Assembly (NCBI GenBank): GCA_051011575.1
Contig: JBPCTR010000230.1
Location: 1-52,425, forward strand
Direction: 5' to 3'
From: Acidimicrobiales bacterium
GTDB lineage: Bacteria > Actinomycetota > Acidimicrobiia > Acidimicrobiales > SHLQ01
Length of the DNA stretch: 52,425 bases
Part shown: positions 5,782-30,664 of the stretch, one piece after another
Position numbering within the stretch: position 1 is the first letter of the stretch
How the letters are laid out: every line of letters starts with the position of its first letter
The notes under the pieces: model-generated
Databases searched by the model: none
Told to the model about the DNA's origin: nothing
The model's input: only the letters and a program-made list of their open reading frames with translations
Position numbers and translations under genes: made by a program

Positions 5782-6141
5782 GTGGAAGGCATCGATGTCG
5801 TATCGACGACGATCAGCGTCGTTGTGGTCGTTGGAATACTCGTGGGCACCCTGATTGCGCTGCGATGGGTGAGCAGGTTTCGATTTCGTGGGAACAACCG
5901 CGGAGACGGAACCGGCCTCGAGGTGGTCGATCGTCAAACGCTCGGTAGAACAGGCGCCCTCGTCGTTGTGCGCTACGCCGGCCGGGAACACCTGATCGGC
6001 GTGACCGAGTCGAATGTCCAACACCTGATCGAGGGAGACGTCGTGGACGTCGACCCGATCGACCTTCGCAACGAGGATGAGTCCGGCTCGGTTCCGATTC
6101 GAATCCTGGAGTCCCTCCGCGACAAGACCGCCCGTCGCTGA
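5782..6141 (+). CDS. fliO: Flagellar biosynthesis protein FliO
   Basis: N-terminal TM helix, then LEVVDRQTLG...LIGVTE; GTG 5782 with GGGAG RBS; directly before fliP. Confidence 0.85.
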   Translation: MEGIDVVSTTISVVVVVGILVGTLIALRWVSRFRFRGNNRGDGTGLEVVDRQTLGRTGALVVVRYAGREHLIGVTESNVQHLIEGDVVDVDPIDLRNEDESGSVPIRILESLRDKTARR

Positions 6142-6152
6142 GAACGACCACG

Positions 6153-7124
6153 ATGCTCGTCCGCCGCAGTCCACCCATGAATCGTCCGCGAACCCTCGCC
6201 CGCGGAATTCCCCGGATGTCAGGCTCTCGGCCGCGCCTCATGGCATTCGCGGCCGTCGTTCTCGTCGGATGGCTGGCGCTCGGGCAGGCCTCCATCGCAT
6301 CGGCTCAAACCGACGCAGATGATCCATCCGACATCACAGACACACCGACCGGTATCGATCTGGACGAACCGATCGACGTGGCGCCCGCGAGCGACGTCGA
6401 ACCCACGACGCCCGACCCGGGCAGTCCGTTGCAAGCTCCGACTCCACCGGTGGTGGGCGGCCCCGACGGCCCCGAGAACACCGAAGGCGGCACGACGGAG
6501 GATTCCGCGATCTCGATCGTCGTCATCATCACCGCTCTCACGCTCGTCCCGACCGTGCTGATCATGGCCACATCGTTTACGAGGATCGTGATCGTGCTCG
6601 GGCTTACGCGGAACGCACTCGGGCTTCAAGGAGTCCCCCCGAATCAAGTGCTCATCGGACTCGCCCTCTTCCTCACGCTGTTCGTGATGGGCCCGACCTT
6701 GTCGGAGGCGAACGACGCCGCGCTCCAGCCGTACCTCGACGGTGAGCTCAGCTTCAGCGAAGCGTACGACCTCGGCGTCGAACCCTTCAGGGACTTCATG
6801 CTCGCCCAGGTACGCGAAGAAGACCTGTCGATGTTCATCGATCTCAGCGGTGAACCCGCCCCGACACAGGCCGATGATGTTCCGCTCACGACGCTCGCTC
6901 CTGCATTTCTCGTCTCCGAGCTGAGGGCGGCGTTCATCATCGGGTTCATCATCTTCGTGCCCTTCCTGGTCGTCGACATGATCGTGTCGGCAACCCTCAT
7001 GTCGATGGGCATGGTGATGCTGCCCCCGGTGGTCATCTCGCTGCCCTTCAAGATCCTGCTGTTCGTGATGGTCGACGGCTGGTTCCTACTCGTTCCCACC
7101 CTTGTCCGATCGTTCGAGCTGTGA
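6153..7124 (+). CDS. fliP: Export gate protein FliP (start may be further downstream, e.g. 6240)
   Basis: TSFTRIVIVL, PPNQVLIGLAL, PAFLVSELR, MGMVMLPP, LFVMVDGW; signal-peptide-like N-terminus. Confidence 0.96.
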   Translation: MLVRRSPPMNRPRTLARGIPRMSGSRPRLMAFAAVVLVGWLALGQASIASAQTDADDPSDITDTPTGIDLDEPIDVAPASDVEPTTPDPGSPLQAPTPPVVGGPDGPENTEGGTTEDSAISIVVIITALTLVPTVLIMATSFTRIVIVLGLTRNALGLQGVPPNQVLIGLALFLTLFVMGPTLSEANDAALQPYLDGELSFSEAYDLGVEPFRDFMLAQVREEDLSMFIDLSGEPAPTQADDVPLTTLAPAFLVSELRAAFIIGFIIFVPFLVVDMIVSATLMSMGMVMLPPVVISLPFKILLFVMVDGWFLLVPTLVRSFEL

Positions 7125-7167
7125 TGAGGCGCTCTCGGCAGAACCGACGCGCCCGGAAGGAAGGTCG

Positions 7168-7437
7168 ATGGATGCAGAACTGATGCGACTGATCAGCGAT
7201 ACCTTGCTGACCGCAACCAGATTGAGCGCGCCGATTCTGATCTCTGCCCTCGTTGTTGGCGTGGTCATAGGCCTCGGACAGACCGTCTTCCAGGTGCAGG
7301 AGGCGACCCTGACCTTCGTGCCCAAGCTCGTGGTCATCGCGATCGTTCTCGCCGTGTCCGGCAACTGGATGCTGGACGAGCTCCAGGAGTTCTTTCTCCG
7401 GTCGCTCGACTCGGTTCCAGCGCTCATCGCCGGCTGA
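7168..7437 (+). CDS. fliQ: Export gate protein FliQ
   Basis: QTVFQVQEATLTFVPK; ATG 7168 after GGAAGG. Confidence 0.95.
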   Translation: MDAELMRLISDTLLTATRLSAPILISALVVGVVIGLGQTVFQVQEATLTFVPKLVVIAIVLAVSGNWMLDELQEFFLRSLDSVPALIAG

Positions 7438-7439
7438 TC

Positions 7440-8186
7440 ATGTTCGAAGACCCAGCGCTGTTCGCGCTTGCTCTCGGTCGAGCCTCGGGTTGGGTTGCCA
7501 CCGTTCCGATCTTTGGGCCGGTGCGTACAACCGCGATCGGCCGCATCGGGTTGGCTGTTGCCATCGCGATGTTCGTCTCCGGCTCCATGCCGCCCACGGA
7601 CGTTCCATCTGAGCTCGGACCCATTGGCGTCGTTCTCGCCGGACAGGTTCTTTACGGCATGCTCCTCGGCTGGATCACATCGCTTGTGATCTCGGCCTTC
7701 GAGGCGGCAGGCGGCACGATCGATCTCGTGGGCGGTCTCTCGGCAGGCGCGGTGCTCGACCCATCGACAGGAACAAGTAACGCAACGGTCGCCCGACTCT
7801 TCCAAATGACATTTGTGGCGGTCCTCGTGATCACGAATGCTCACCTCCTCATCGTGGGAGGGTTCGTTCGCTCGTTCGCGCGGGTGCCCGCCACGACAAT
7901 TCCGGTGATCGGCGAGGATGACCTGTCGGCGATCGTTCGGGCCGCCGCCGATCTGCTGCTCGCATCACTGGAGATCGGTGCGCCGGTCGTGGGTGTGCTG
8001 ATCCTGGCGGAGGTGGCGATGGCTCTTGCCGCTCGATTCGCACCGCAGGCCAACATCTTCATGCTCAGCCTCCCCCTCAAGGCCATGATCGTCTTGGTGC
8101 TGCTCGCGAATGTCCTGCTATTCCTTCCCGTGTTCACCGAGCGAATCACCGAGGAGGCGGCCACGCTCCTCGTGAGGGTCGGTTGA
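7440..8186 (+). CDS. fliR: Export gate protein FliR
   Basis: Hydrophobic 248 aa protein with AGGTID and RFAPQANIF...PLK; follows fliQ. Confidence 0.93.
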   Translation: MFEDPALFALALGRASGWVATVPIFGPVRTTAIGRIGLAVAIAMFVSGSMPPTDVPSELGPIGVVLAGQVLYGMLLGWITSLVISAFEAAGGTIDLVGGLSAGAVLDPSTGTSNATVARLFQMTFVAVLVITNAHLLIVGGFVRSFARVPATTIPVIGEDDLSAIVRAAADLLLASLEIGAPVVGVLILAEVAMALAARFAPQANIFMLSLPLKAMIVLVLLANVLLFLPVFTERITEEAATLLVRVG

Positions 8187-9699: not shown

Positions 9700-11768
9700 C
9701 AGCACCCGTTCGTCCCGCAACCCGACTCGCCCAGCTGGGCATCCCATTTCTGATCGTCAGCATCGTCGTCGTGATGGTGGTGCCACTTCCCGCGGTGATG
9801 ATCGACCTGCTCATCTCGTTCAATCTCGGTGTCGCACTCGTGATCATGCTGACGTCGATGATCGTCAATGAACCGCTGCAGTTCTCGGTATTCCCGGCTC
9901 TGTTGCTCGTGACGACCCTGTTCCGTCTGGCGCTCAACATCTCGACGACACGGCTGATCCTGTCCGAGGGGCGCGGCGGTGCCGTCATCGAGACGTTCGG
10001 TGGCTTCGTTGTCGGCGGCAACATCGTCATCGGACTCGTGATCTTCCTCATACTCGTCGTGATTCAGTTCGCCGTGGTCACCACCGGCGCCGGGCGAGTC
10101 GCCGAGGTGTCGGCCCGATTCACCCTCGATGCGATGCCCGGAAAGCAAATGGCCATCGATGGCGAGCTGAATTCCGGATCGATTACCGAGGCCGAGGCCA
10201 CACGCCGACGTCGGCTCGTCGCCCAGGAAGCTGATTTCTATGGGTCCATGGACGGCGCATCAAAGTTCGTGAAGGGAGACGCGATCGCCTCGGTCGTGAT
10301 CGTGGTGATCAATCTCCTCGGTGGGATCGCGATCGGAGCCATTCAGCTCGGCTTGTCGATAAGCGACTCCGTCACCCGATTCGCACTCCTGTCCGTCGGC
10401 GATGGGCTCGTGTCGCAGATTCCGGCCCTCCTGATCTCGGTGGCGTCAGGCATCGTCGTCACTCGAGCGGTCAGCGACCATGATGGCGGACTCGGCAGCG
10501 ACCTCTGGACTCAACTGCTGCAGGACAAACGTGTTCTGGGCGTCGCGTCAGCGGCCATGCTTCTCGTGGCACTCATGCCAGGTATTCCGAAGATTCCGTT
10601 TCTCCTGATTGCAGCCGCGCTCGGCGCCGGCACCCTCCGACCCGAGTCGGAGCCCGTGGAAGGCGACGAGACGACAGGCGGACGCAACCTCACCCCGGCA
10701 GCGTCAGCGACTGCTGACGCCGAGGACCTCGCTCTCGACATTCGGGTCGAGCCACTCGAGATCGCGCTGGCGCCCGACCTCTTCGACCTCGTCGATCCCG
10801 ACCGAGGTGGCACGCTGCTCACTCGGGTGGCCTCGCTTCGGCGAAAGATCGCGCTCGACCTCGGCCTCATCATCCCGCTGGTTCGGACCCGCGACGAGGT
10901 GACCCTCCCCCGTTCGACCTATGTGATTCGGATGAACGGAGTCGAAGCCGGACGCGGTGAGCTTCCACTCGGCAAATCATTGGTCCTGGTTCCTGGCGAC
11001 GACCTCGCGCTACACGGAGAAGTCACCGTCGACCCGGTGTTCGGCCTCCCCGCTGCCTGGGTCTCGTCGGACATCGCAGAGATCCAGGAGCGTCAGGGGC
11101 GAACCGTGATCGACCGTCCGTCGGTCATGGTCACGCATCTCTCCGAGCTGGTTACATCGCGCGCCGATGAGCTTCTCAGCCGGCAATCGGTTCAGGAACT
11201 CGTCGAAGGGGTCGCTGCAACCGCACCTGCGGTTGCGAACGAGGTGGGTGGCGACGTACTCACGCTCGCCGAGCTCCATGATGTGCTCCGAGGCTTGCTG
11301 CGTGAACGGGTTCCGATCCGCGACCTCACTCGAATCCTCGAAGCGATCAGCGCTCGGGCGCGGACCTCACGCGATCCCGATGCGCTCCTCGAGGCGGCGC
11401 GTACGGCTCTCTCCAGCGTTCTGACCGCTCAGGTCTCCCCCGAGGGAATCCTGCGGCCGATCACGCTCGATCCACTGCTCGAACAGCGCCTCATCGAATC
11501 GGTTCGGGCCGGCGAGAACGGGAGTTTCCTGGCGGTCGAGCCCGGCATCACCGAGCAATTCCTCGCGTCCGCCGACGAGCAGATCCTCGCTGCAGAACGA
11601 CTCGGCCACGAGCCGATCATCGTGTGCAGCGCCAGTCTTCGCCAGGTCATCCGCAGGCTGCTCGCCGCGGGCCGACCCGGCCTGCGCGTGTTGTCTTTCG
11701 CCGAATTGACCGACGGACCCACCATCGAACCATTGGGAGTGATCAATGTCTCTACCGAGAACGTATGA
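9696..11768 (+). CDS. flhA: Flagellar export protein FlhA
   Basis: RVAEVSARFTLDAMPGKQMAID and DFYGSMDGASKFVKGDA. Confidence 0.98.
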   Translation: MTAPVRPATRLAQLGIPFLIVSIVVVMVVPLPAVMIDLLISFNLGVALVIMLTSMIVNEPLQFSVFPALLLVTTLFRLALNISTTRLILSEGRGGAVIETFGGFVVGGNIVIGLVIFLILVVIQFAVVTTGAGRVAEVSARFTLDAMPGKQMAIDGELNSGSITEAEATRRRRLVAQEADFYGSMDGASKFVKGDAIASVVIVVINLLGGIAIGAIQLGLSISDSVTRFALLSVGDGLVSQIPALLISVASGIVVTRAVSDHDGGLGSDLWTQLLQDKRVLGVASAAMLLVALMPGIPKIPFLLIAAALGAGTLRPESEPVEGDETTGGRNLTPAASATADAEDLALDIRVEPLEIALAPDLFDLVDPDRGGTLLTRVASLRRKIALDLGLIIPLVRTRDEVTLPRSTYVIRMNGVEAGRGELPLGKSLVLVPGDDLALHGEVTVDPVFGLPAAWVSSDIAEIQERQGRTVIDRPSVMVTHLSELVTSRADELLSRQSVQELVEGVAATAPAVANEVGGDVLTLAELHDVLRGLLRERVPIRDLTRILEAISARARTSRDPDALLEAARTALSSVLTAQVSPEGILRPITLDPLLEQRLIESVRAGENGSFLAVEPGITEQFLASADEQILAAERLGHEPIIVCSASLRQVIRRLLAAGRPGLRVLSFAELTDGPTIEPLGVINVSTENV

Positions 11769-12636
11769 GGGAACGACGATCGAGGACGCCCTGTTGGCGG
11801 CAGCCGCCGACCTGGGCGATGACCTCGAGATCGTCGACGCCTCGAAGGTTCGCATGGGCGGCATCTTCGGTTTCTTCGCACGCGAAGGATTCGTCGTGAC
11901 GGCCGAGCGACGAAGGAAACGCCGTTCGGCGGATGACGAGTCGTTCAACGACGTGCTCCTGTCGCTCGCCGACTCGGTCGCCGACCGCTACGAGGCACCC
12001 ACCATCGACCTCACGACGCGGGGCGAGGCCTCCCCGTCGACGCGGACACCGGCACTCGATGAGCACCCTGAAGCCGCGATGATCGACCTGACGAACACAG
12101 CTGCCAACGAGCACCCGGTTGAAACCGAATCCGGTTCATTCGGACTGATCGACCTCCGCGAACGGCGCCGAATCTCGGCACCCGCCGCGGTCGTACAGGA
12201 GTCACCGGCCATTCCGCCGCCCTCGCCGGCGCCGGCGCCGGTCGAAGCTGCCCCCGCCTTTCCGGTGGATCCACCCTTCAGCTTCGGCTCCGAACGGCCA
12301 TCCAAGCTGCGCTCCCAACTGAGCGGGCCGCAATGGAGTCTTATCTCGCTACGCGACCTCGGCGTTCCGAAGCCGACTCTCGACGCGCTCGCACACGCTG
12401 GGCCGAGCACCGACCTGGAATGGGTTCGGGCGTTGACACACGCCATCGACACCCAGATCGGATCGATGTCGGCCACGGGCACGCTACGCATGTCCGCCGA
12501 CGGTCACCCGGGTGCGGTTGAGCTCGTGAATGCCCTCGAAGGCGGCGTGCGGCCCGACGCGCTGGTGATCGATGGTGAGCGCATCGCTGCCACGGCCGAA
12601 CAGCTGGCCCTCTCGATCCGCGAGTGCCTCCGATGA
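11746..12636 (+). CDS. FlhF-like protein with N-terminal domain only (no SRP GTPase domain)
   Basis: N-term YEGTTIEDAL...LGDDLEIV...KVRMGGIFGFF resembles the FlhF N-terminus and the gene follows flhA; no Walker A motif. Confidence 0.65.
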   Translation: MSLPRTYEGTTIEDALLAAAADLGDDLEIVDASKVRMGGIFGFFAREGFVVTAERRRKRRSADDESFNDVLLSLADSVADRYEAPTIDLTTRGEASPSTRTPALDEHPEAAMIDLTNTAANEHPVETESGSFGLIDLRERRRISAPAAVVQESPAIPPPSPAPAPVEAAPAFPVDPPFSFGSERPSKLRSQLSGPQWSLISLRDLGVPKPTLDALAHAGPSTDLEWVRALTHAIDTQIGSMSATGTLRMSADGHPGAVELVNALEGGVRPDALVIDGERIAATAEQLALSIRECLR

Positions 12637-17381: not shown

Positions 17382-18696
17382 GCTACTCGATGACGTATCG
17401 CCGTTTCGCGTCAGCGGCCAGGTGACCGGAATTTCGGGCCTGGAGATCACTGTGCAGGGCCTGGACGCTGCGGTCGGCACGGTCGTCCACGTCGGAACGG
17501 AGCGCACCCCGGCCGAGGTCGTGGCGATTCGACACAACCAGTGTGTGACGATGGCGCTCACCGAGGTTCAGGGAATCGCTCCCGGCGATCCCGTCGATGC
17601 GGGAACGCCGCTGCGCCTCGAGGTTGGCGATTCGCTTCGCGGCCGGACTCTGGACGCGCTCGGGCGACCCATAGATGGACTCGGGCCGATCGGCGGACCG
17701 ACCGAACGAATCCCGCTCGAGTCGAAGGTGCCCGGCCCACTCACTCGCCAGCGCATCTCGGATCCCCTTGGACTCGGCGTGAGAGCGATCGACGCCCTTT
17801 TGCCCTGCGGACGCGGCCAGCGCGTCGGAATCTTCGCCGGCAGTGGGGTCGGGAAGAGCTCCCTCCTCGGCATGATGGCGCGCGGCACCCAAGCCGACGT
17901 GGTGGTCGTCGGGCTGATCGGTGAACGGGGCCGCGAGGTTCGCGAATTCATCGAGGACGATCTCGGTCCTGCCGGGATGCAAAACGCAGTCGTGATCGCG
18001 GCGACCTCGGACGAACCAGCACCGGTTCGACTCAGAGCAGCATTCACCGCTACTCGGGTCGCCGAATGGTTCGCGTCGCACGGGCTCGACGTTCTACTCC
18101 TCATGGACTCGGTGACCCGGGTCGCGATGGCACAACGGGAGGTCGGTCTCACGGCGGGAGAACCGCCAACGACCCGTGGTTACCCGCCGTCGGTGTTCGC
18201 CATGCTCCCCAGGCTCCTCGAACGTGCCGGACCACTCGCCACCGGATCGATCACAGGCGTGTACACCGTGCTCGTCGAAGGTGACGACCTCAGTGAGCCC
18301 GTAACCGATCACGTGCGGTCGATTCTCGACGGGCACGTCGTGCTCAGCCGAGATCTCGCAGCGGCGGGCCACTTCCCGACAATCGATGTCCTCAACAGCG
18401 TGAGCAGGCTCGCCAGCCGCGTGGCCACTCCCTCACATCTGACCGATGCGACGGCGGTGCGCCGACTCCTGCTGGAATGGGAGAGCGGTCGGGACCTCGT
18501 CGAACTCGGTGCCTATCACGGCGGCACGAACCCCGAGCTGGACGCGTTTCTCACCCTGCGGAGCCCGATCGAGTCTTTCTTGCGACAGAACATCGACGAG
18601 GTCATCGAGCGGGATCGGTCGATGGGCGAGCTGACTGCGCTCAGCGATGCGATCAGGTCCCTCGGTGCCGCGGGCGGAGTGGAGACGGCGTCATGA
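17368..18696 (+). CDS. fliI: Flagellar export ATPase FliI
   Basis: Walker A GSGVGKS, GERGREV, DSVTR, GYPPSVF; AAGGAG RBS. Confidence 0.97.
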   Translation: MALAELLDDVSPFRVSGQVTGISGLEITVQGLDAAVGTVVHVGTERTPAEVVAIRHNQCVTMALTEVQGIAPGDPVDAGTPLRLEVGDSLRGRTLDALGRPIDGLGPIGGPTERIPLESKVPGPLTRQRISDPLGLGVRAIDALLPCGRGQRVGIFAGSGVGKSSLLGMMARGTQADVVVVGLIGERGREVREFIEDDLGPAGMQNAVVIAATSDEPAPVRLRAAFTATRVAEWFASHGLDVLLLMDSVTRVAMAQREVGLTAGEPPTTRGYPPSVFAMLPRLLERAGPLATGSITGVYTVLVEGDDLSEPVTDHVRSILDGHVVLSRDLAAAGHFPTIDVLNSVSRLASRVATPSHLTDATAVRRLLLEWESGRDLVELGAYHGGTNPELDAFLTLRSPIESFLRQNIDEVIERDRSMGELTALSDAIRSLGAAGGVETAS

Positions 18697-19115
18697 AGAA
18701 GAATTCTCGAATTCACGCCGTCATTCGACTTTCCCGACATCGGGAGCGTGCAGCGAAGGCAAAACACGCGGACAACCTGCGTCGGCTCGAGGAAGCCCGT
18801 TCGCAGTTCGTCGATGCGCAACATCGTGCATCCGTCGAAGACATGCGAGCCGACTCGCTCGATGAGCTTCACCGTCATCGGATGCGGAAGGCGCTGGCTG
18901 CGCAGGTCGCGCTGGGTCACGAGTCCGATGTTCGGGATCAGGTCGAACAAGCCGTCATCGCCCAGAACGAGCTCCACGCGGCGATGCGGTACAAGCGCAC
19001 GGTCGAACGTATCGAAGATCGGCACCGCAAGGCATGGGCCGTCCTCGCGACCCAGGCCGCCGACCGAGCGATCGACGACATCGCCATCGCCGGCTGGAAA
19101 CGGAGGCAGTCATGA
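18693..19115 (+). CDS. fliJ: Flagellar export protein FliJ
   Basis: 140 aa coiled-coil protein after fliI (ATGA overlap) with C-terminal IDDIA. Confidence 0.8.
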   Translation: MKKNSRIHAVIRLSRHRERAAKAKHADNLRRLEEARSQFVDAQHRASVEDMRADSLDELHRHRMRKALAAQVALGHESDVRDQVEQAVIAQNELHAAMRYKRTVERIEDRHRKAWAVLATQAADRAIDDIAIAGWKRRQS

Positions 19116-20719
19116 ATGGATTGTTTGGAGTCCTGAGTCGAATCGGCACGATCGAGGCCCGATTCGGAGCGGCGAGTGCCACACCGATCGGCACGGCCGG
19201 CACGGAGTCCGCGTCGTTCGGTTCACTTCTCGAGTCCGTTGACGCACCCAACTCAGGTTCTCGCGCATTTGCGTTCTCGGGCCTCACCGGAGGAGCGGGC
19301 ACCACCCCCGGAACCCTGCCGAACATCTCGCCTGCGCTTCGACGTGCATTCGAGGAAGCTGCCGATCGCTACGACCTCGATGTGAACTTCCTGATGGCGG
19401 TCTCCTGGACCGAATCGGCGTTCAACCCTGACGCCGTCTCGCATGCCGGCGCAATCGGTCTGATGCAGCTCATGCCGGGCACCGCGGCCGGACTCGGGGT
19501 GAATCCTCGTGATCCCCTCGAGAACATCGACGGAGGCGCGCGCTATCTGCGGGAGCAGCTCGATCGATTCGGATCACCCGAACTGGCCCTCGCCGCCTAC
19601 AACGCCGGACCCGGCGCGGTGCAGAGGTATGGCGGAGTCCCGCCGTTCGAGGAAACACAGAACTACGTGCCCCGGGTGATGGATCGATTCCGTGCACTCC
19701 TCGGCGCCGGGGTCGCCGGACTGAACAGTCCCGGTTCCGTCACGCCGACTGGCGCGAATCCAGTCGTCTCGGCCGCAGCCACGCCGGCGGCATCAGAGCT
19801 GGCAAACCCCAACCCGAGCCCCGACGCGGTTCGTGGTGAGGCAACCCAACCGCCGACGAAGCCGGCCGAGAACCCAGCGGCGATCGTCGATGCGGCGCCG
19901 GTACGCGTCGATGGCAACGAACAGCAGGACACTCGCCGCCGGGCGACGCCTGAGGTCAGGGCGTCCGAGTTGCAGCGAACCGTGATCACACCCGCTCAGG
20001 CCAGCGCCGCATCGACCGATCGTTCGGTCGATCTGGTCTCAGCGAGCACAGCGGGACCCCAGGTCGCGGCGTCCTCGGCCATCGCAGGGGAGATCATCGA
20101 GTCGAACGAGCCCGCGGCCGCCGAGATCATCAGCCAGGCGGTCGCCGATGGCGTGGCCCGTGAATCGTCGTCGTCCTCAACCTGGGGTGATGGGTCCCGA
20201 CCCGGTGATGGCGGACCCAGCACCGACGGCGGTTCCGCGTCGTCGCCATCGCTGAGTGCGGTTTCAGCTTCAGCGACACCGGGCACCACTGCGTCACCGA
20301 ACGTGACGCTCGCCGAGCCGGTTCCGATCAGCCGTGTGCCGGAGGCCCTGATGCAATTCGTGCAGCGCGGAGAGAACCAGATGGTTCGTCTGCAACTCGA
20401 CCCGGATGGGCTCGGCGAGATCTCCATACAGCTCTCCATGACAGCGACCGGCGAGGTGGCGGTGGAGATTCTCACCGAATCCGACACCACCGCGGCGCTG
20501 TTGGGACGAATCCGCGAAGCGCTCGACGCCAACCTGCGCAGCGAAGGGCTTCATCTCGACTCGTTCGACGTGTCGAGCCAGAGCGACACCGAAGAATCGA
20601 CCGCTGAGTCCGCTCGAGATGAGCGGGCTCGCGAGTCCGGCGATTCGGCCGACGACGTCGCTGATCCCGAAACCGAACCCGACCCAGACATCGACCGACC
20701 GTCGGTGCTCCGAATCTGA
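19112..20719 (+). CDS. fliK: Fusion: soluble lytic transglycosylase (SLT) + long linker + FliK C-terminal hook-length control domain
   Basis: SLT motifs TES, AGAIGLMQLMP, AAYNAG, ETQNYV (~19335-19690); Ala/Pro/Ser/Thr-rich linker; VRLQLDPDGLGEISI FliK-C signature (~20385-20580); single ORF between fliJ and flgD. Confidence 0.88.
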   Translation: MNGLFGVLSRIGTIEARFGAASATPIGTAGTESASFGSLLESVDAPNSGSRAFAFSGLTGGAGTTPGTLPNISPALRRAFEEAADRYDLDVNFLMAVSWTESAFNPDAVSHAGAIGLMQLMPGTAAGLGVNPRDPLENIDGGARYLREQLDRFGSPELALAAYNAGPGAVQRYGGVPPFEETQNYVPRVMDRFRALLGAGVAGLNSPGSVTPTGANPVVSAAATPAASELANPNPSPDAVRGEATQPPTKPAENPAAIVDAAPVRVDGNEQQDTRRRATPEVRASELQRTVITPAQASAASTDRSVDLVSASTAGPQVAASSAIAGEIIESNEPAAAEIISQAVADGVARESSSSSTWGDGSRPGDGGPSTDGGSASSPSLSAVSASATPGTTASPNVTLAEPVPISRVPEALMQFVQRGENQMVRLQLDPDGLGEISIQLSMTATGEVAVEILTESDTTAALLGRIREALDANLRSEGLHLDSFDVSSQSDTEESTAESARDERARESGDSADDVADPETEPDPDIDRPSVLRI

Positions 20720-20726
20720 GGAAATC

Positions 20727-21155
20727 ATGATCAACGGAATCAGTGGTATCGCCACGAGTGAGACGAGTCAGCCCATGATCGCCGACTCGATGGGGAACGA
20801 CAGAGATCTCTTTCTGAAGCTCCTCGTCGCGCAGGTCCAGTATCAGGACCCTCTCGAGCCCATGGACAACCAGGAGTACCTGGCCCAGACAGCTCAGTTC
20901 ACGATGGTCGAGCAGATCACGCGAATGGCAGAACAGACATCGGAACTCCTTGCGTTCCAACGTGCGACCCTCGCGTCGGGAATGATCGGCCAAACCGTGA
21001 CCGCCGTCGACGAATCAGAGGCGAGCACGACCGGGGTCGTGTCGGGGGTCGATTACAACTTCGGCGATCCACAACTTCTCATCGACGGCCAACGGGTCGG
21101 ACTCGACGAGGTGGTGGCCGCTGGTGCGACGCCAGAGGAGGAGTCGACCGACTGA
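20727..21155 (+). CDS. flgD: Hook capping protein FlgD
   Basis: FLKLLVAQVQYQDPLEPMD...AQTAQF. Confidence 0.96.
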   Translation: MINGISGIATSETSQPMIADSMGNDRDLFLKLLVAQVQYQDPLEPMDNQEYLAQTAQFTMVEQITRMAEQTSELLAFQRATLASGMIGQTVTAVDESEASTTGVVSGVDYNFGDPQLLIDGQRVGLDEVVAAGATPEEESTD

Positions 21156-21269: not shown

Positions 21270-22496
21270 ATGATGCGTTCCATGTTCGCAGCCGTTTCCG
21301 GCCTGCGATCCCATCAGGTGATGGCCGACGTGATCGGCAACAACATCGCAAACGTCAACACGACCGGCTTCAAGTCGAGTCGCGTCGAGTTCGCGGACAC
21401 CATGTCGCAGCTCATGCAGGCGGGGTCACTCGCCACCAGCGCCGCGGCAAACGTGAATCCGACCCAGATTGGCCTCGGCGTCAAAGTTGCGGCCACGCAG
21501 CTGTCGCAGACACCGGGTGCCGCCCAGGTCACGAACCAGACCACCGACGTCGCGATCCAGGGCGATGGATTCTTCGTCGTTCGGATGGAGAACGAACAGC
21601 TGTATTCGAGGGCGGGCTCGTTCCGCTTTGATGCACTCGGACGTCTCGCAAACCCGTCGGGTGGGCTCGTGCAGGGTTGGCTGATCGACCCCGCCACGAA
21701 CGAGATCAACTCGAACGCACCCCTCACGGACATCGAGGTGCCGACGAGCTCGACGATCGAACCACAGATCACGACCGAGGTCGTCTATGGCGGCAACATG
21801 TCTGCCGTCGCTGCAGTGGGCGATCCCCCCGCTGAGTCTGTGATCGAGGTCGTCGACGGCCAGGGCGTACCCCACAAGGTGTCGCTCTCGTTCGAGAAGA
21901 CCGCGATCGATCAGTGGACCCTCACGATGACCGATGTCGCAGGCGGCGGCGTGATCAACACGACCACGCTCGACTTTGATCCAGCGAATGGCCAACTCGT
22001 TGCTCCCCCGGCTCCGTTCCCCGTCACGTTCACGACCCCGAACGGCGAGAACATCGTGTTCGACCTCGACCTCACCCAGACAACCCAGTACGGCACGCCC
22101 ACCGATCCTCGACTCATCTCGAGCGATGGATCAGAGGCCGGCTCGCTCAGAGGATTCGCAATCGATGCCAACGGCATCATCTCGGGAGTCTTCTCGAACG
22201 GTGAGACGCGTGATCTCGCTCAGCTCGCCCTCGCGGCGTTCTCCAACCCGAACGGGCTGGGAGCAGAGGGCGACACGGTGTTCCGCTCCACGCTCGCAAG
22301 TGGCGATGCCACCGTCGGTGCTGCTGGGACATCGGGCCGTGGCCTCCTCGCCGCCGGCCAGGTGGAGGCGTCAAACGTCGAGTTGGCCCTGGAGTTCACC
22401 AACTTGATCATCGCCCAGAGAGGCTTCCAGGCGAACAGCAGGGTGATCACTACGAGCGACGAGATGATCCAGGAACTCGTCAACCTGACGCGATAG
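21270..22496 (+). CDS. flgE: Flagellar hook protein FlgE
   Basis: GNNIANVNTTGFK, DVAIQGDGFF, EASNVELALEFTNLIIAQRGFQANSR; 408 aa. Confidence 0.96.
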   Translation: MMRSMFAAVSGLRSHQVMADVIGNNIANVNTTGFKSSRVEFADTMSQLMQAGSLATSAAANVNPTQIGLGVKVAATQLSQTPGAAQVTNQTTDVAIQGDGFFVVRMENEQLYSRAGSFRFDALGRLANPSGGLVQGWLIDPATNEINSNAPLTDIEVPTSSTIEPQITTEVVYGGNMSAVAAVGDPPAESVIEVVDGQGVPHKVSLSFEKTAIDQWTLTMTDVAGGGVINTTTLDFDPANGQLVAPPAPFPVTFTTPNGENIVFDLDLTQTTQYGTPTDPRLISSDGSEAGSLRGFAIDANGIISGVFSNGETRDLAQLALAAFSNPNGLGAEGDTVFRSTLASGDATVGAAGTSGRGLLAAGQVEASNVELALEFTNLIIAQRGFQANSRVITTSDEMIQELVNLTR

Positions 22497-25413: not shown

Positions 25414-26220
25414 ATGACCTTGCGAATCAATCAGAATGTTGCGGCGGTAAACGCCCACCGCAACTTGGTGGGAAACGACAACGCCTTGAGTAAATCACTC
25501 GAGCGTCTGTCTTCGGGTTTCCGGATCAACCGAGCTGCAGATGATGCTGCCGGCCTGATCAAGTCGGAAACACTTCGCTCTGAGGTGCGTGGCACCAAAC
25601 AGGCGATTCAGAATGCCCAGGACGGGATCAGCTTCGTGCAGACGGCCGAGGGTTCACTCAACGAGGTCCACAGCATCCTTCAGCGGATGAACGAGCTGGC
25701 GGTTTCGGCCGCCAACACGGCGACCAGTGACGGGTCCGCCGAACAGGCCGAGATCGACGAACTTCTGCTGCAGATCGACTCGATCGGCACCAACACGAAG
25801 TTTGCCGGCCTCGATGTCTTTGCCGCAGCTGCGCAGACGTTCCACGTGGGCGCCAACAGCGGTGAGAGCATCGACGTGACGACGGGAGTGCTCACGCAGA
25901 CGTCGGTCGGTGTCAACGGACTCGACGTCACCACAGCCACGGGCGATGCCGACGCCGCCATCGGCACCATTGCGACGGCGATCGATACCGTCTCCACACT
26001 TCGTGGAACGCTGGGCGCCAAGCAGAACCGGCTCGAGTCGACCACGAACAACCTGCGGGTGAGCGTCGAGAATCTGTCGGCATCGGAATCACGAATCCGT
26101 GACACAGACATGGCCCTCGAGATGTCCGCCTTCACCCGGAACCAGATCATGGTCCAGGCCGGCACGGCGATGCTCGCGCAGGCCAACGCGGTTCCGCAGA
26201 CCATGCTCGGCCTTCTCTGA
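25414..26220 (+). CDS. fliC: Flagellin 1 (short, 268 aa)
   Basis: RLSSGFRINRAADDAAGL, LGAKQNRLES, SRIRDTDMA, AMLAQAN. Confidence 0.98.
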   Translation: MTLRINQNVAAVNAHRNLVGNDNALSKSLERLSSGFRINRAADDAAGLIKSETLRSEVRGTKQAIQNAQDGISFVQTAEGSLNEVHSILQRMNELAVSAANTATSDGSAEQAEIDELLLQIDSIGTNTKFAGLDVFAAAAQTFHVGANSGESIDVTTGVLTQTSVGVNGLDVTTATGDADAAIGTIATAIDTVSTLRGTLGAKQNRLESTTNNLRVSVENLSASESRIRDTDMALEMSAFTRNQIMVQAGTAMLAQANAVPQTMLGLL

Positions 26221-26423: not shown

Positions 26424-26430
26424 ATCTCTT

Positions 26431-26465
26431 GCCCGCAAGGAAGTGGGTTACTAGTCAAGGAGGAC
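26431..26465 (+). promoter_or_regulatory. CsrA-binding leader of flagellin 2
   Basis: GCCCGC-AAGGAA-GTGGGT and GTC-AAGGAG-GAC (over the SD). Confidence 0.72.
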
Positions 26466-26473
26466 GCAGCACC

Positions 26474-27283
26474 ATGAGTCTGCAGATCAATCAGAATGTT
26501 GCGGCGATCAACGCTCACCGCAACCTTGTTTCCAACGACAACATGCTGAGCAAGTCGCTCGAGCGGCTGTCGTCTGGTTTCCGGATCAACCGAGCTGCAG
26601 ACGATGCAGCCGGCCTGATCAAGTCGGAAACCCTCCGTGCTGAGGTGCGTGGCACCCAGCAGGCGGTCAAGAATGCCCAGGACGGTATCAGCTTCGTCCA
26701 GACTGCAGAAGGCTCCCTCGTTGAGGTCCATGCCATGCTGCAGCGGATGAATGAGCTGGCTGTCTCTGCAGCCAACACCGCGACCAGCGACGGTTCCGCC
26801 GAACAGGCCGAGATCGACGAGCTCCTGCTCCAGATCGACGCCATCGGCACGAACACCAAGTTCGCTGGCCTCGATGTGTTCGACGCCGCCGCTCGTACGT
26901 TCCACGTGGGCGCCAACAGCGGTGAGTCCATCGATGTCACCACGGGTGCCCTCGATGTGGCCTCGGTCGGCGTGACCGGCCTCGACGTCACCACCGCAAC
27001 TGGTGACGCCGATGCTGCGATCGGAACATTGGCCACGGCCATCCAGACCGTGTCTGATCTGCGAGGAACCCTCGGTGCCAAGCAGAACCGTCTCGAGTCG
27101 ACGATCAACAACCTGCGTGTCAGCGTCGAGAACCTCTCGGCATCGGAATCACGAATTCGTGATACCGACATGGCTCTCGAGATGTCGATGTTCACCCGGA
27201 ACCAGATCATGGTCCAGGCCGGCACGGCGATGCTCGCACAGGCCAACGCTGTCCCCCAGAACATCCTCGGACTGCTCCGATAG
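26474..27283 (+). CDS. fliC: Flagellin 2 (short, 269 aa)
   Basis: Same flagellin motifs; close paralog of 25414..26220; ATG 26474 after AAGGAGG. Confidence 0.98.
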   Translation: MSLQINQNVAAINAHRNLVSNDNMLSKSLERLSSGFRINRAADDAAGLIKSETLRAEVRGTQQAVKNAQDGISFVQTAEGSLVEVHAMLQRMNELAVSAANTATSDGSAEQAEIDELLLQIDAIGTNTKFAGLDVFDAAARTFHVGANSGESIDVTTGALDVASVGVTGLDVTTATGDADAAIGTLATAIQTVSDLRGTLGAKQNRLESTINNLRVSVENLSASESRIRDTDMALEMSMFTRNQIMVQAGTAMLAQANAVPQNILGLLR

Positions 27284-27311: not shown

Positions 27312-27477
27312 GTCTCCCGGTCCGCTAGTCGGACCGGGAGACAAGGTCCGAATCGGCGGGATTCGGACGAGCTTCGGATTACCGGCGGGAAATCTGAGGC
27401 GGGTGAACCCGGATCGGCGGGTTGATCCGGGAGCTGGCGATCGGCGGTGGCCAATGGCGGGAACCCACCGCCGATCG
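27312..27477 (+). other. Highly structured intergenic region with repeated GGCGGG motif (ncRNA/terminator candidate)
   Basis: Four inverted repeats: 27312-27342 (13 bp), 27346-27368 (9 bp), 27408-27431 (8 bp), 27438-27477 (13 bp). The last overlaps GCCA-N16-GCCGATCG. Confidence 0.55.
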
Positions 27478-27509
27478 ACCAGCGGAAATTCACGACGGAA
27501 GAAAAGGGA

Positions 27510-27905
27510 ATGACGAACACGGCGGAACAGGCGAGGGATCGAGAGCTCACTCTTCATCAGAAGCAGGAGCTCGAGCGATACCGGACGGAACGAATTCTCA
27601 CGGCTCCTCCCGGCACGCTGATTTCGATGCTCCTGGAGCGTGCTGTCATCGATCTCGACGGCGCGATGGCGAAGCCCGACGCAGCCGAACGAAGCGCTCT
27701 CATTCGACACGCTCAAGACATTGTGCTCGAGCTTCGGTGCTGTATCGATCTGTCTCAAGGAGAGGTCGCTGAGAACCTCGACGCCTTGTACGCCTACGTT
27801 GAGCGTCAGTGTCTCGAGGCGTTTCTGACTCGGTCGAACGAGCCTCTGGGACCTGCCCGAAACGTGCTTGCCGACATTCACGAGGGTTGGGCCGCAATTC
27901 TCTGA
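27510..27905 (+). CDS. fliS: Flagellin chaperone FliS
   Basis: ILTAPPGTLISMLL, AQDIVLEL, AENLDALYAY, EGW. Confidence 0.92.
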   Translation: MTNTAEQARDRELTLHQKQELERYRTERILTAPPGTLISMLLERAVIDLDGAMAKPDAAERSALIRHAQDIVLELRCCIDLSQGEVAENLDALYAYVERQCLEAFLTRSNEPLGPARNVLADIHEGWAAIL

Positions 27906-27942: not shown

Positions 27943-28407
27943 GTGATTGGCGGAACAAGTGAAACGGCGGACCGCGTCCACGACGCATTGGCGATCCTTC
28001 TCGATCGCGAGGTGAACCTGCTCAAAGGGCTGCGTCACCGCATGGCACTACTGCGACTCGCGCTGCTCGATGGCGACCCTGGCGTCGCTCAGCTTGCGAC
28101 AAAGGACGTCGTTGCGGCCACAGAGTTTCTCGCCGACCTCGCGGAAGAACGAGAGACCACGTTGAGTGGGATGCTCGGTGCAGGACAGCCTCCGATAGAG
28201 ATCGACGACATCGCGATCACGGCTCCGGACACCCACAAAGCCGTTCTTGGCCGACTTGTCGCCGAACGCCGAACAGAGGTCCGCCTCGTCGAGGCGCTGC
28301 GAGACTCGACCAAGTCGATTGCCGAGGAAGGAAAGCGCTCGGTGACCGGTCTGCTCGATCTCCGTGGCGGTCCAGACGGACCGACAATCATCACGGGCGG
28401 CCTGTAG
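27943..28407 (+). CDS. flgN: FlgN-like export chaperone
   Basis: Helical 154 aa protein directly upstream of flgK; pattern LLDRE.NLL..L. Confidence 0.7.
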   Translation: MIGGTSETADRVHDALAILLDREVNLLKGLRHRMALLRLALLDGDPGVAQLATKDVVAATEFLADLAEERETTLSGMLGAGQPPIEIDDIAITAPDTHKAVLGRLVAERRTEVRLVEALRDSTKSIAEEGKRSVTGLLDLRGGPDGPTIITGGL

Positions 28408-29779: not shown

Positions 29780-30664
29780 ATGAGAATTTCGACCCCCCAG
29801 ATGTGGCGCTCATCGATCAACGATGTGTCGCGTGCGCAGGTGGCTTCGGCCGAGGCGGGCAAACGCGTCTCCACCGGTCGGCGGATCGACCGTGCGTCCG
29901 ACGACCCCGTCGGAGCACTCCGAGCCACGCAGCTGCGCACGGATGCGGACGCCATCGACCAGTACCATCGGGCTGCGCAGGACGCGGTCACCGTCATGAA
30001 CGAACAGGACACGGCTCTCCAATCCGTCCTGAACCGGATGATCGAGGTCGAGGGACTCACGATCTCATCGGCAAATGATGTGCAGACCGTCGACGGACGT
30101 GAAGCGATTGCGACCGAACTCGAAGAGTTGCGCGCACAACTCGTCGACATCGCAAACACCGATCATCGCGGTCGCGCACTCTTCGGTGGATTCAATGGCG
30201 CGGCGGTCGATGCGTCGGCGCCGACCGTTGCACTCAGCTCCGATGGTGGCGCTGTCCTCCGGCGCGTGGACGAGAACCATGTCGTTCAGATCAACGTCGA
30301 CGCGGGTGAGGTCTTCGGCTTCTCGTCAGGGCGCAGCCTGTTCGATGTGCTCGACGACATCATCATCGACGTCCGCGCTGCCGACGTTGCGACACTCGGC
30401 ACGACGAGGCTCGACGAGCTCGAGTCTGCTCGGACCAATGTCAGCAATGCGCTGGGCACGATCGGCGCTCGTACGTCGCGGGTTCAGACCACGATCACCC
30501 ACTCGACCGAACGCCGAGACACGAACCGCGCCGCGGCCGCGTCCATTGACGAGGTCGATCTGGCGCAGGCATCGATCGACGTATCCGAGGCCGCGCTGGC
30601 CTACGAAGCCGCGCTGGCGATCACCGCCCAGATAAACCGCACGAGCCTCCTCAACTTCCTCTGA
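29780..30664 (+). CDS. flgL: Hook-associated protein FlgL
   Basis: MRIST, STGRRIDRASDDP, YEAAL...SLLNFL. Confidence 0.95.
   Translation: MRISTPQMWRSSINDVSRAQVASAEAGKRVSTGRRIDRASDDPVGALRATQLRTDADAIDQYHRAAQDAVTVMNEQDTALQSVLNRMIEVEGLTISSANDVQTVDGREAIATELEELRAQLVDIANTDHRGRALFGGFNGAAVDASAPTVALSSDGGAVLRRVDENHVVQINVDAGEVFGFSSGRSLFDVLDDIIIDVRAADVATLGTTRLDELESARTNVSNALGTIGARTSRVQTTITHSTERRDTNRAAAASIDEVDLAQASIDVSEAALAYEAALAITAQINRTSLLNFL

Follow-up and report, generated by a model that had tools for sequence, protein, structure and literature searches.

A lytic transglycosylase-type SLT domain and a FliK C-terminal domain in one open reading frame of an Acidimicrobiales flagellar operon

The fusion gene and its reading frame

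The gene described here is located in a flagellar operon of an Acidimicrobiales bacterium (assembly GCA_051011575.1, contig JBPCTR010000230.1). The window is the whole stretch of 52,425 nucleotides (nt) that was analyzed, read on the forward strand. At 19112-20719 (+), it contains one gene that encodes an SLT-type lytic transglycosylase (LT) domain and, behind a long linker, the C-terminal domain of the hook-length ruler FliK (FliK-C). According to the list of open reading frames (ORFs) and the translation, the gene is a single uninterrupted ORF of 535 codons from the ATG at 19112 to the TGA at 20717-20719. A first-pass annotation, made from the letters of the window alone, had described one 535-aa ORF, and no internal stop was found in it. 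The gene order is flhB, flhA, rod genes, fliF, fliG, fliH, fliI, a fliJ-like gene, the fusion gene, flgD and flgE, which places the fusion gene ahead of flgD and flgE within the flagellar operon, as expected for fliK.

An alternative, longer ORF opens at 19034. The ATG at 19112 is favored as the start because it overlaps the TGA of the fliJ-like gene (ATGA at 19112-19115), is preceded at a distance of 5 nt by a ribosome-binding-like GGAGG at 19102-19106 (+), and corresponds to the methionine at which relatives start. Across the linker, the GC content of the third codon position is 0.73 to 0.75, matching that of the neighboring genes, and several stop codons are present there in both other frames.

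Domains of the predicted protein

Profile searches placed both domains above their Pfam cut-offs, as the first-pass annotation had proposed should be checked. SLT (PF01464) matches amino acids (aa) 79-184 with an E value of 3.2e-28 (98.1 bits, cut-off 21.3), and Flg_hook (PF02120) matches aa 420-494 with an E value of 9.3e-13 (48.3 bits, cut-off 29.8). The latter is the sole Flg_hook match in the genome. The catalytic-site motifs ES, GLMQ and AYNAG, named already in the annotation, are all present as E101-S102, G116-L-M-Q119 and A162-Y-N-A-G166. They are invariant in 30 fused homologues with a mean column identity of 42%. E101, encoded at 19412-19414, is taken to be the catalytic glutamate by homology.

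A structural model was built with AlphaFold2 (AF2) using 30 sequences. The N terminus is modeled as a helix of aa 3-18, with a block-mean predicted local distance difference test (pLDDT) value of 77 for aa 1-10 and 69 for aa 11-20, followed by a disordered stretch of aa 19-65. The SLT domain, aa 70-203 (19319-19720, +), is modeled confidently with a pLDDT of about 90. Its Foldseek matches are Slt of Pseudomonas aeruginosa (5ohu, E value 1.2e-8), MltF, Slt70 (1qte) and MltD, so that model and matches together indicate the goose-lysozyme-like, all-helical fold of the SLT family. The disordered, low-complexity linker of aa 204-405 (19721-20326, +) has a pLDDT below 50 over most of aa 203-402, is rich in A, S, P, V and T, and differs in length among the homologues. 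In the annotation it had been given roughly 230 residues; it measures about 200 aa when the disordered positions 203-402 of the model are counted and about 235 aa between the Pfam boundaries. The FliK C-terminal domain (Flg_hook/T3S4) comprises aa 406-494 (20327-20593, +). Its aa 406-490 are modeled as an alpha/beta unit of helix, three strands, helix and strand with pLDDT values of 65 to 77, and its sequence match to the solved FliK C-terminal structure 2RRL is weak (E value 0.04). The protein ends in an acidic, disordered tail (20594-20716, +) with a conserved terminal L-R-I, of which L533 and R534 are invariant across the 30 fused homologues.

Three other assignments were considered. The best NCBIfam match is NF047373 (BB0259_flg_lyt) with 84.6 bits against a cut-off of 234, covering only profile positions 553-681 of 705; membership in the BB0259 family was rejected, since the score is under the cut-off and the catalytic part alone was aligned. 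A Sec-exported lipoprotein or membrane-bound LT was rejected because there is no hydrophobic segment. A Sec-like segment was not found by Kyte-Doolittle hydropathy in a 19-residue window, with maxima of 0.85 for residues 1-60 and of 1.23 for the whole protein, and the annotation's statement that a Sec signal is missing thus holds. Assignment to FlgJ was rejected as well: neither the protein nor the genome has a match to Rod-binding (PF10135) or to Glucosaminidase (PF01832).

Conservation of the fused architecture

The fusion is a genuine, conserved single gene of the flagellar operon. Among 25 genomes of the genus, including that of the window, five have a Flg_hook match, and all five carry SLT and FliK-C in one open frame; no Flg_hook match was obtained in the other 20. 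The closest relatives with a FliK-C domain are fused and not split, which answers for the genus the comparison of related genomes that had been proposed. Both Pfam domains were also found in 30 among 120 listed relatives from a collection of 5.8 billion proteins. The architecture is present in public databases, albeit unremarked, with some of these proteins labeled "FliK" or "hypothetical" at JGI, and a literature search found no paper describing an SLT-FliK fusion or the N-terminal module treated below. When FliK-C by itself (aa 400-535) was used in a word-indexed search, nothing but the query was retrieved, and the result is uninformative about the architecture of FliK relatives. A protein atlas yielded no usable feature match, its structural rows being SLT-only clusters with a TM score below 0.3 by query.

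The window belongs to a fragmented metagenome-assembled genome of 315 contigs, and the joined frame could have come about through an error of assembly or sequencing, or could reflect recent read-through of a pseudogene-like kind in a single bin. Short metagenome contigs tile 19206-20417 save for a 23-nt gap and contain no insertion or deletion, which answers the proposed read check for most of the linker. This cover is partial and not independent: it consists of four low-depth contig runs of one study, possibly the source sample of the window, and is lacking at 19118-19205 (in three of the four runs), at 20051-20073 and everywhere past 20481. Four more species-level genomes within the genus have the uninterrupted architecture, and so do 23 further database clusters of the same kind (group 1, see below) from several sources. 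An artefact is consequently considered extremely unlikely.

Separate hydrolase and fliK genes in related Acidimicrobiia

A draw of 401 Acidimicrobiia genomes contained 34 with a Flg_hook match, and 33 of these loci were examined (G179 was left out). Split genes were called by tblastn or blastp with few query domains at an E value of at most 1e-4 within 3 to 4.5 kb upstream of fliK. A separate wall hydrolase gene is located directly upstream of a separate fliK in 16 of the 33 loci. It encodes NlpC/P60 (P60) plus SLT in 10 loci, SLT only in 3, and P60 only in another 3. The remaining loci comprise 12 without a hydrolase found upstream by these queries, 3 cut by contig ends, 1 doubtful match and the fused locus of the window. 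The P60-only genes (L103, L111 and L114 in genomes G059, G064 and G159, respectively) suggest that the enzyme chemistry of this slot is interchangeable.

For G038 and G039, Pfam confirmed that a P60+SLT gene precedes a separate fliK. In G035, an SLT gene precedes a separate fliK whose FliK-C is too diverged for Pfam. By eye, this fliK (L102, reverse strand, 6076-7653 oriented) has an FKDLL near the start, a FliK-C-like stretch and a GLRL end. The SLT protein of G035 ends in ...DRFRSLGGTP, which aligns exactly where the window protein continues with ...DRFRALLGAG..., and this indicates a fusion junction near codon 200. When the start codon nearest to the hydrolase stop was chosen by rule, 12 of the 16 split loci have their fliK start 4 nt inside the stop of the hydrolase gene, so that a small change should suffice to join the two genes. 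The slot is conserved beyond the class, since an Actinosynnema operon is given as fliI-tolA-nlpC(SLT protein)-fliK-flgD (PMC9019756). Judged from these comparisons, the split hydrolase-fliK pair is the ancestral state, and the fusion arose by the joining of neighboring genes.

The same class draw contains FlhB in 48 of the 401 genomes, compared with Flg_hook in 34. Outside the class, many SLT relatives from Bacillota and Rhodobacterales were dropped as flagellar candidates, since tblastn with 11 window proteins found only 7 of 80 loci near flagellar genes (L013 to L017, L024 and L082). One of these, in Zhenpiania hominis (L017, 5950-6744), encodes an SLT protein of 264 aa that is 48% identical to aa 8-191 and has a looser N-terminal helix and an FRSVI motif; its neighbors are cheA, an FlhB-C-like gene, flgB, fliE and fliF.

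An N-terminal module as putative export signal

The first 45 aa (19112-19246, +) contain the hydrophobic residues L4, F5, G6, V7 and L8, the helix of aa 3-18, and the motif F36-G-S-L-L40 of the form FxxxPhi (19217-19231, +), which resembles a gate recognition motif. A helix motif at aa 10-16 and an FxxxPhi at aa 32-46 are present in 30 of 30 fused proteins, and ahead of aa 70 invariance is confined to the columns R10, I14 and F36. The split hydrolases of the Acidimicrobiia, whichever catalytic domain they contain, exhibit by eye a helix of the pattern h-x-x-R-I-x-x-I-E-x-R-F with an FxxxPhi about 15 to 30 residues further on. A hidden Markov model (HMM) for which only aa 1-45 of the fused proteins were used matched 11 of 17 split hydrolases with E values of 4e-5 to 4e-10, among them all three P60-only enzymes, which have no catalytic domain in common with the query.

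Early flagellar substrates are described as having a hydrophobic extreme N terminus together with a gate recognition motif for docking at the C-terminal domain of FlhB (FlhBc); the motif is located at aa 36-40 of Salmonella FlgD and 39-43 of FlgE, with a spacing of about 26 residues or more to the N-terminal signal (PMC8983047). The consensus of the motif is FXXXPhi (PMC10965912). L4-F-G-V-L8 and F36-G-S-L-L40 of the window protein fit this description, the latter at the same position as the FlgD motif, and FlgD (F29LKLL33) and FlgE (F41ADTM45) of the window carry similar motifs. Amino acids 1-45 thus look like an early-substrate export signal of the flagellum's type III secretion system (T3SS). 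The first-pass annotation had assumed export through this system, N terminus first; the conserved early-substrate-like module with its FxxxPhi at aa 36-40 makes this route plausible, as a prediction. A complex prediction of the FlhB C-terminal domain with aa 1-60 gave a score of 0.02 and, being without controls, speaks neither for nor against binding.

Stand-alone FliKs have an FxxxPhi of their own at about aa 28-58 (15 of 16, by eye). No positionally conserved FxxxPhi follows the SLT domain in the 30 fused proteins, and no phenylalanine is present in the spacer stretch of the window protein that was examined. It seems from these patterns that the fused protein kept the N-terminal module of the hydrolase and lost FliK's own signal, which argues against a separately translated FliK. 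Synthesis of FliK from an internal start had been named in the annotation as an observation that would speak against the fusion. Such an internal start, or cleavage within the spacer, would yield two products from one ORF, and the joined frame would be functionally meaningless. In-frame TTG or GTG codons at aa 287, 291, 348, 398 and 409, of which one is preceded by a Shine-Dalgarno-like sequence, would allow internal starts, and long disordered spacers are generally accessible to proteases. A FliK started within the spacer, however, would have no N-terminal FxxxPhi, unlike 15 of the 16 stand-alone FliKs, and the frame has stayed open across a divergence to about 40% identity and across spacers of differing length. 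With no export-signal motif downstream of the SLT domain, an internal start gains no support, and a two-product gene is judged improbable.

Alternatively, the SLT domain may not be an exported enzyme, being a degenerate or binding-only head of the ruler, or the protein may reach the wall by another route. This is very unlikely in view of the invariant E101-S102, GLMQ and AYNAG in the 30 homologues, the confidently SLT-like fold, the lack of a Sec-type segment, and the N-terminal module, which is also present in the P60-only hydrolases encoded at this place in the operon. Hydrolases with this module, containing P60, SLT or both, may form a class of autolysins exported by the flagellar T3SS in Actinomycetota.

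Fusions in other lineages and the length of the ruler

When a profile of 16 fused proteins was run on 1.84 billion cluster representatives, the best 150 included at least 26 fused representatives, and 56 database proteins with both domains were collected in all. Group 1, the kind of the window genus, has 24 members of 535 to 579 aa; group 2 has 10 members of 420 to 556 aa with a C-terminal LRL; group 3 has 21 members of 451 to 880 aa; and a single protein, P0127, is outside these groups. In a FastTree phylogeny of the SLT domain (127 columns, 55 of 127 inner branches open, "other" rows being a random 40 of 261), which is poorly resolved, the label "fused" needs 6 changes on the best tree, at least 2 of which are required by well-supported branches. 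Within the group 1 clade, three rows labeled "stand-alone", P0025, P0026 and P0126, probably represent fusions truncated on short contigs. SLT-FliK fusions are present in at least two sequence groups besides group 1, and the fusion recurs in at least two groups, probably in three or more, which may reflect separate origins. In a phylum-wide draw of 401 genomes, 34 genomes matched the group 2 protein P0082 at an E value of at most 1e-30, and none of the 41 listed matches reaches FliK-C.

The first-pass annotation had proposed a coupling of wall drilling to length measurement, in which a wall-cutting enzyme would reach the rod or hook tip with each exported ruler and the SLT domain would add to the length of the ruler. 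The recurrence of the fusion suggests an advantage. Moreover, the distance from the N terminus to FliK-C is 389 to 440 aa in group 1 (median 410, n = 24), inside the 240 to 496 aa of stand-alone FliKs (median 355, n = 16), whereas the spacer alone is shorter with 195 to 249 aa. In group 3, on the other hand, the spacer alone covers 144 to 557 aa (median 399, n = 21), and the SLT domain would not be needed for length there. Two separate genes suffice in most relatives, and early substrates, FlgJ included, stop being exported at the switch anyway, so that metering of the enzyme needs no fusion. Coupled drilling is thus regarded as rather unlikely.

The flagellar cluster and the remainder of the assembly

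The fliJ-like gene upstream of the fusion gene (18693-19115, +) is named by its position between fliI and the fusion gene. It has no Pfam match, and the equivalent gene in G038 has a weak FliJ match (E value 1.4e-4, under the cut-off). Downstream, flgD for the hook cap (20727-21155, +) starts 7 nt after the fusion stop with a GAGGA site that overlaps this stop, followed by the hook gene flgE (21270-22496, +), assigned by Pfam. The order then continues with flbD, motA, motB, fliL, flagellins, flgK, flgL, fliW and fliN, and the cluster is of the monoderm type.

The annotation had noted that neither FlgJ nor a separate hydrolase is part of the cluster. No separate wall hydrolase or FlgJ-type gene was found among the 28 ORFs scanned between 8638 and 34912. 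The whole assembly, which is 92% complete, contains no match to Rod-binding, Glucosaminidase or NlpC/P60, FlgI was not found in it, and its only other SLT match is weak (E value 1.9e-5; contig C111, 9655-9951, -) and lies inside a 708-aa open frame. No other candidate for a flagellar hydrolase was found in the assembly.

The missing NlpC/P60 match in a 92%-complete assembly is unusual for an actinobacterium; a control Corynebacterium genome has one. Three ORFs inside the cluster have no Pfam match, 11746-12636 (+, 296 aa), 27422-27772 (+, 116 aa) and 27943-28407 (+, 154 aa), and the latter two could, by position, encode small chaperone- or anti-sigma-type proteins. Tandem flagellin genes are located at 25414-26220 and 26429-27283 (+). 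A third flagellin-family gene at 29780-30664 (+), positioned after flgK and followed by fliW, is probably flgL.

Proposed function of the fusion protein

The reading considered fairly probable is that an SLT-type hydrolase of the flagellar operon became joined to FliK and is exported through the flagellar gate as enzyme plus switch. In the genus, the stop of an SLT-type hydrolase gene would have disappeared near codon 200, so that the frame runs on into fliK. The product would retain the export module of the hydrolase, the SLT domain with its conserved motifs, a disordered spacer of about 200 aa and the FliK-C switch domain, without the N-terminal signal of FliK and without a P60 domain. The whole protein would be exported unfolded, N terminus first, by the flagellar gate while the rod and hook grow. 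Outside the membrane, the SLT part would refold and cleave the glycan strands around the growing rod. Once the hook is long enough, FliK-C would flip FlhB to late substrates, and the export of the enzyme should end at the same time.

Several points weigh against this proposal. An enzyme domain of 130 aa that is folded when functional would, as the leading part of a ruler, have to travel through the channel unfolded, with no room to fold there. The enzyme head also replaces the N-terminal region of FliK, for which contacts to the hook and its cap are assumed in Salmonella. The rod has already crossed the wall when the hook is measured, and cutting would therefore depend on molecules exported earlier. 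The FxxxPhi motif is short, with a chance rate of about 4 in 10 N termini of 75 residues by our own estimate, and has weight only because of its positional conservation. The HMM of the module missed 6 of the 17 split hydrolases, in which looser versions are present by eye. With the queries used and within 3 to 4.5 kb upstream, 12 of the 33 Acidimicrobiia FliK loci showed no hydrolase match beside fliK. Finally, PMC13584718 describes dedicated hydrolysis as not essential in Salmonella and reports it as unnecessary in Bacillus subtilis. This tempers the premise that a dedicated hydrolase is required for the rod.

A more far-reaching version would be that the ruler repeatedly became a carrier of enzymes, with delivery metered by the intermittent exports that gauge the length of rod plus hook and shut off at the FlhB switch, the enzyme head replacing the N-terminal domain of FliK and adding to the length of the ruler, and the N-terminal module marking a new class of exported autolysins. 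This combination is regarded as rather improbable.

Comparison with known systems and significance

FlgJ is a rod cap fused to a glucosaminidase and an early substrate of the flagellar T3SS. Like FlgJ of Salmonella and Escherichia coli, the window protein joins a wall-cutting domain to a flagellar assembly protein; it would likewise be exported by the T3SS without Sec, and this export would also cease at the substrate switch. In FlgJ, however, the enzyme is a C-terminal GH73 glucosaminidase combined with the Rod-binding cap, whereas here an N-terminal SLT domain is combined with the switch domain of the ruler. By analogy, the fusion may apply the principle of FlgJ with a different enzyme and a different partner.

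With the flagellar-operon hydrolases of other Actinomycetota, the window protein shares the slot between fliJ and fliK, the N-terminal module and a closely related SLT domain (47 to 72% identity by tblastn). These hydrolases, for which no functional study was found, differ in being encoded by a separate gene, usually with P60, next to a stand-alone fliK with its own FxxxPhi, while the window protein is fused and has no P60. Compared to FliK and other T3S4 rulers, it has the C-terminal Flg_hook domain, a long, variable and disordered spacer, and a gene ahead of flgD-flgE that is single in the genome, but its N-terminal part is an enzyme domain with an export module of its own, and its likeness to 2RRL is weak. 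The YscP-type proteins of injectisomes are comparable rulers. SLT-family domains are also assigned to secretion machines that cross the wall in BB0259 (NF047373) of Borrelia, SltF of Rhodobacter and EtgA/IagB of injectisomes, all of which stand alone. The likeness to the BB0259 family is confined to the catalytic part and under the cut-off, and SltF and EtgA are Sec-exported partners of rod proteins that are not known to be fused to a ruler.

How the rod crosses the thick wall of monoderms is unsettled, and the activity of FlgJ in Salmonella is helpful but not essential (PMC13584718). Flagellated Actinomycetota appear to be different, with a hydrolase gene kept inside the flagellar operon. Through the fusion, such a hydrolase is physically linked to a protein whose passage through the flagellar export gate is established, and this may serve as natural "Rosetta-stone" evidence for these hydrolases as early T3SS substrates, with aa 1-45 and F36 offering a simple, testable signal. 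The fusion further provides a test case, set up by nature, for the extent to which the N-terminal half of a molecular ruler can change. If the coupling of enzyme export to the ruler is true, it would represent a new way to limit an autolysin in space and time.

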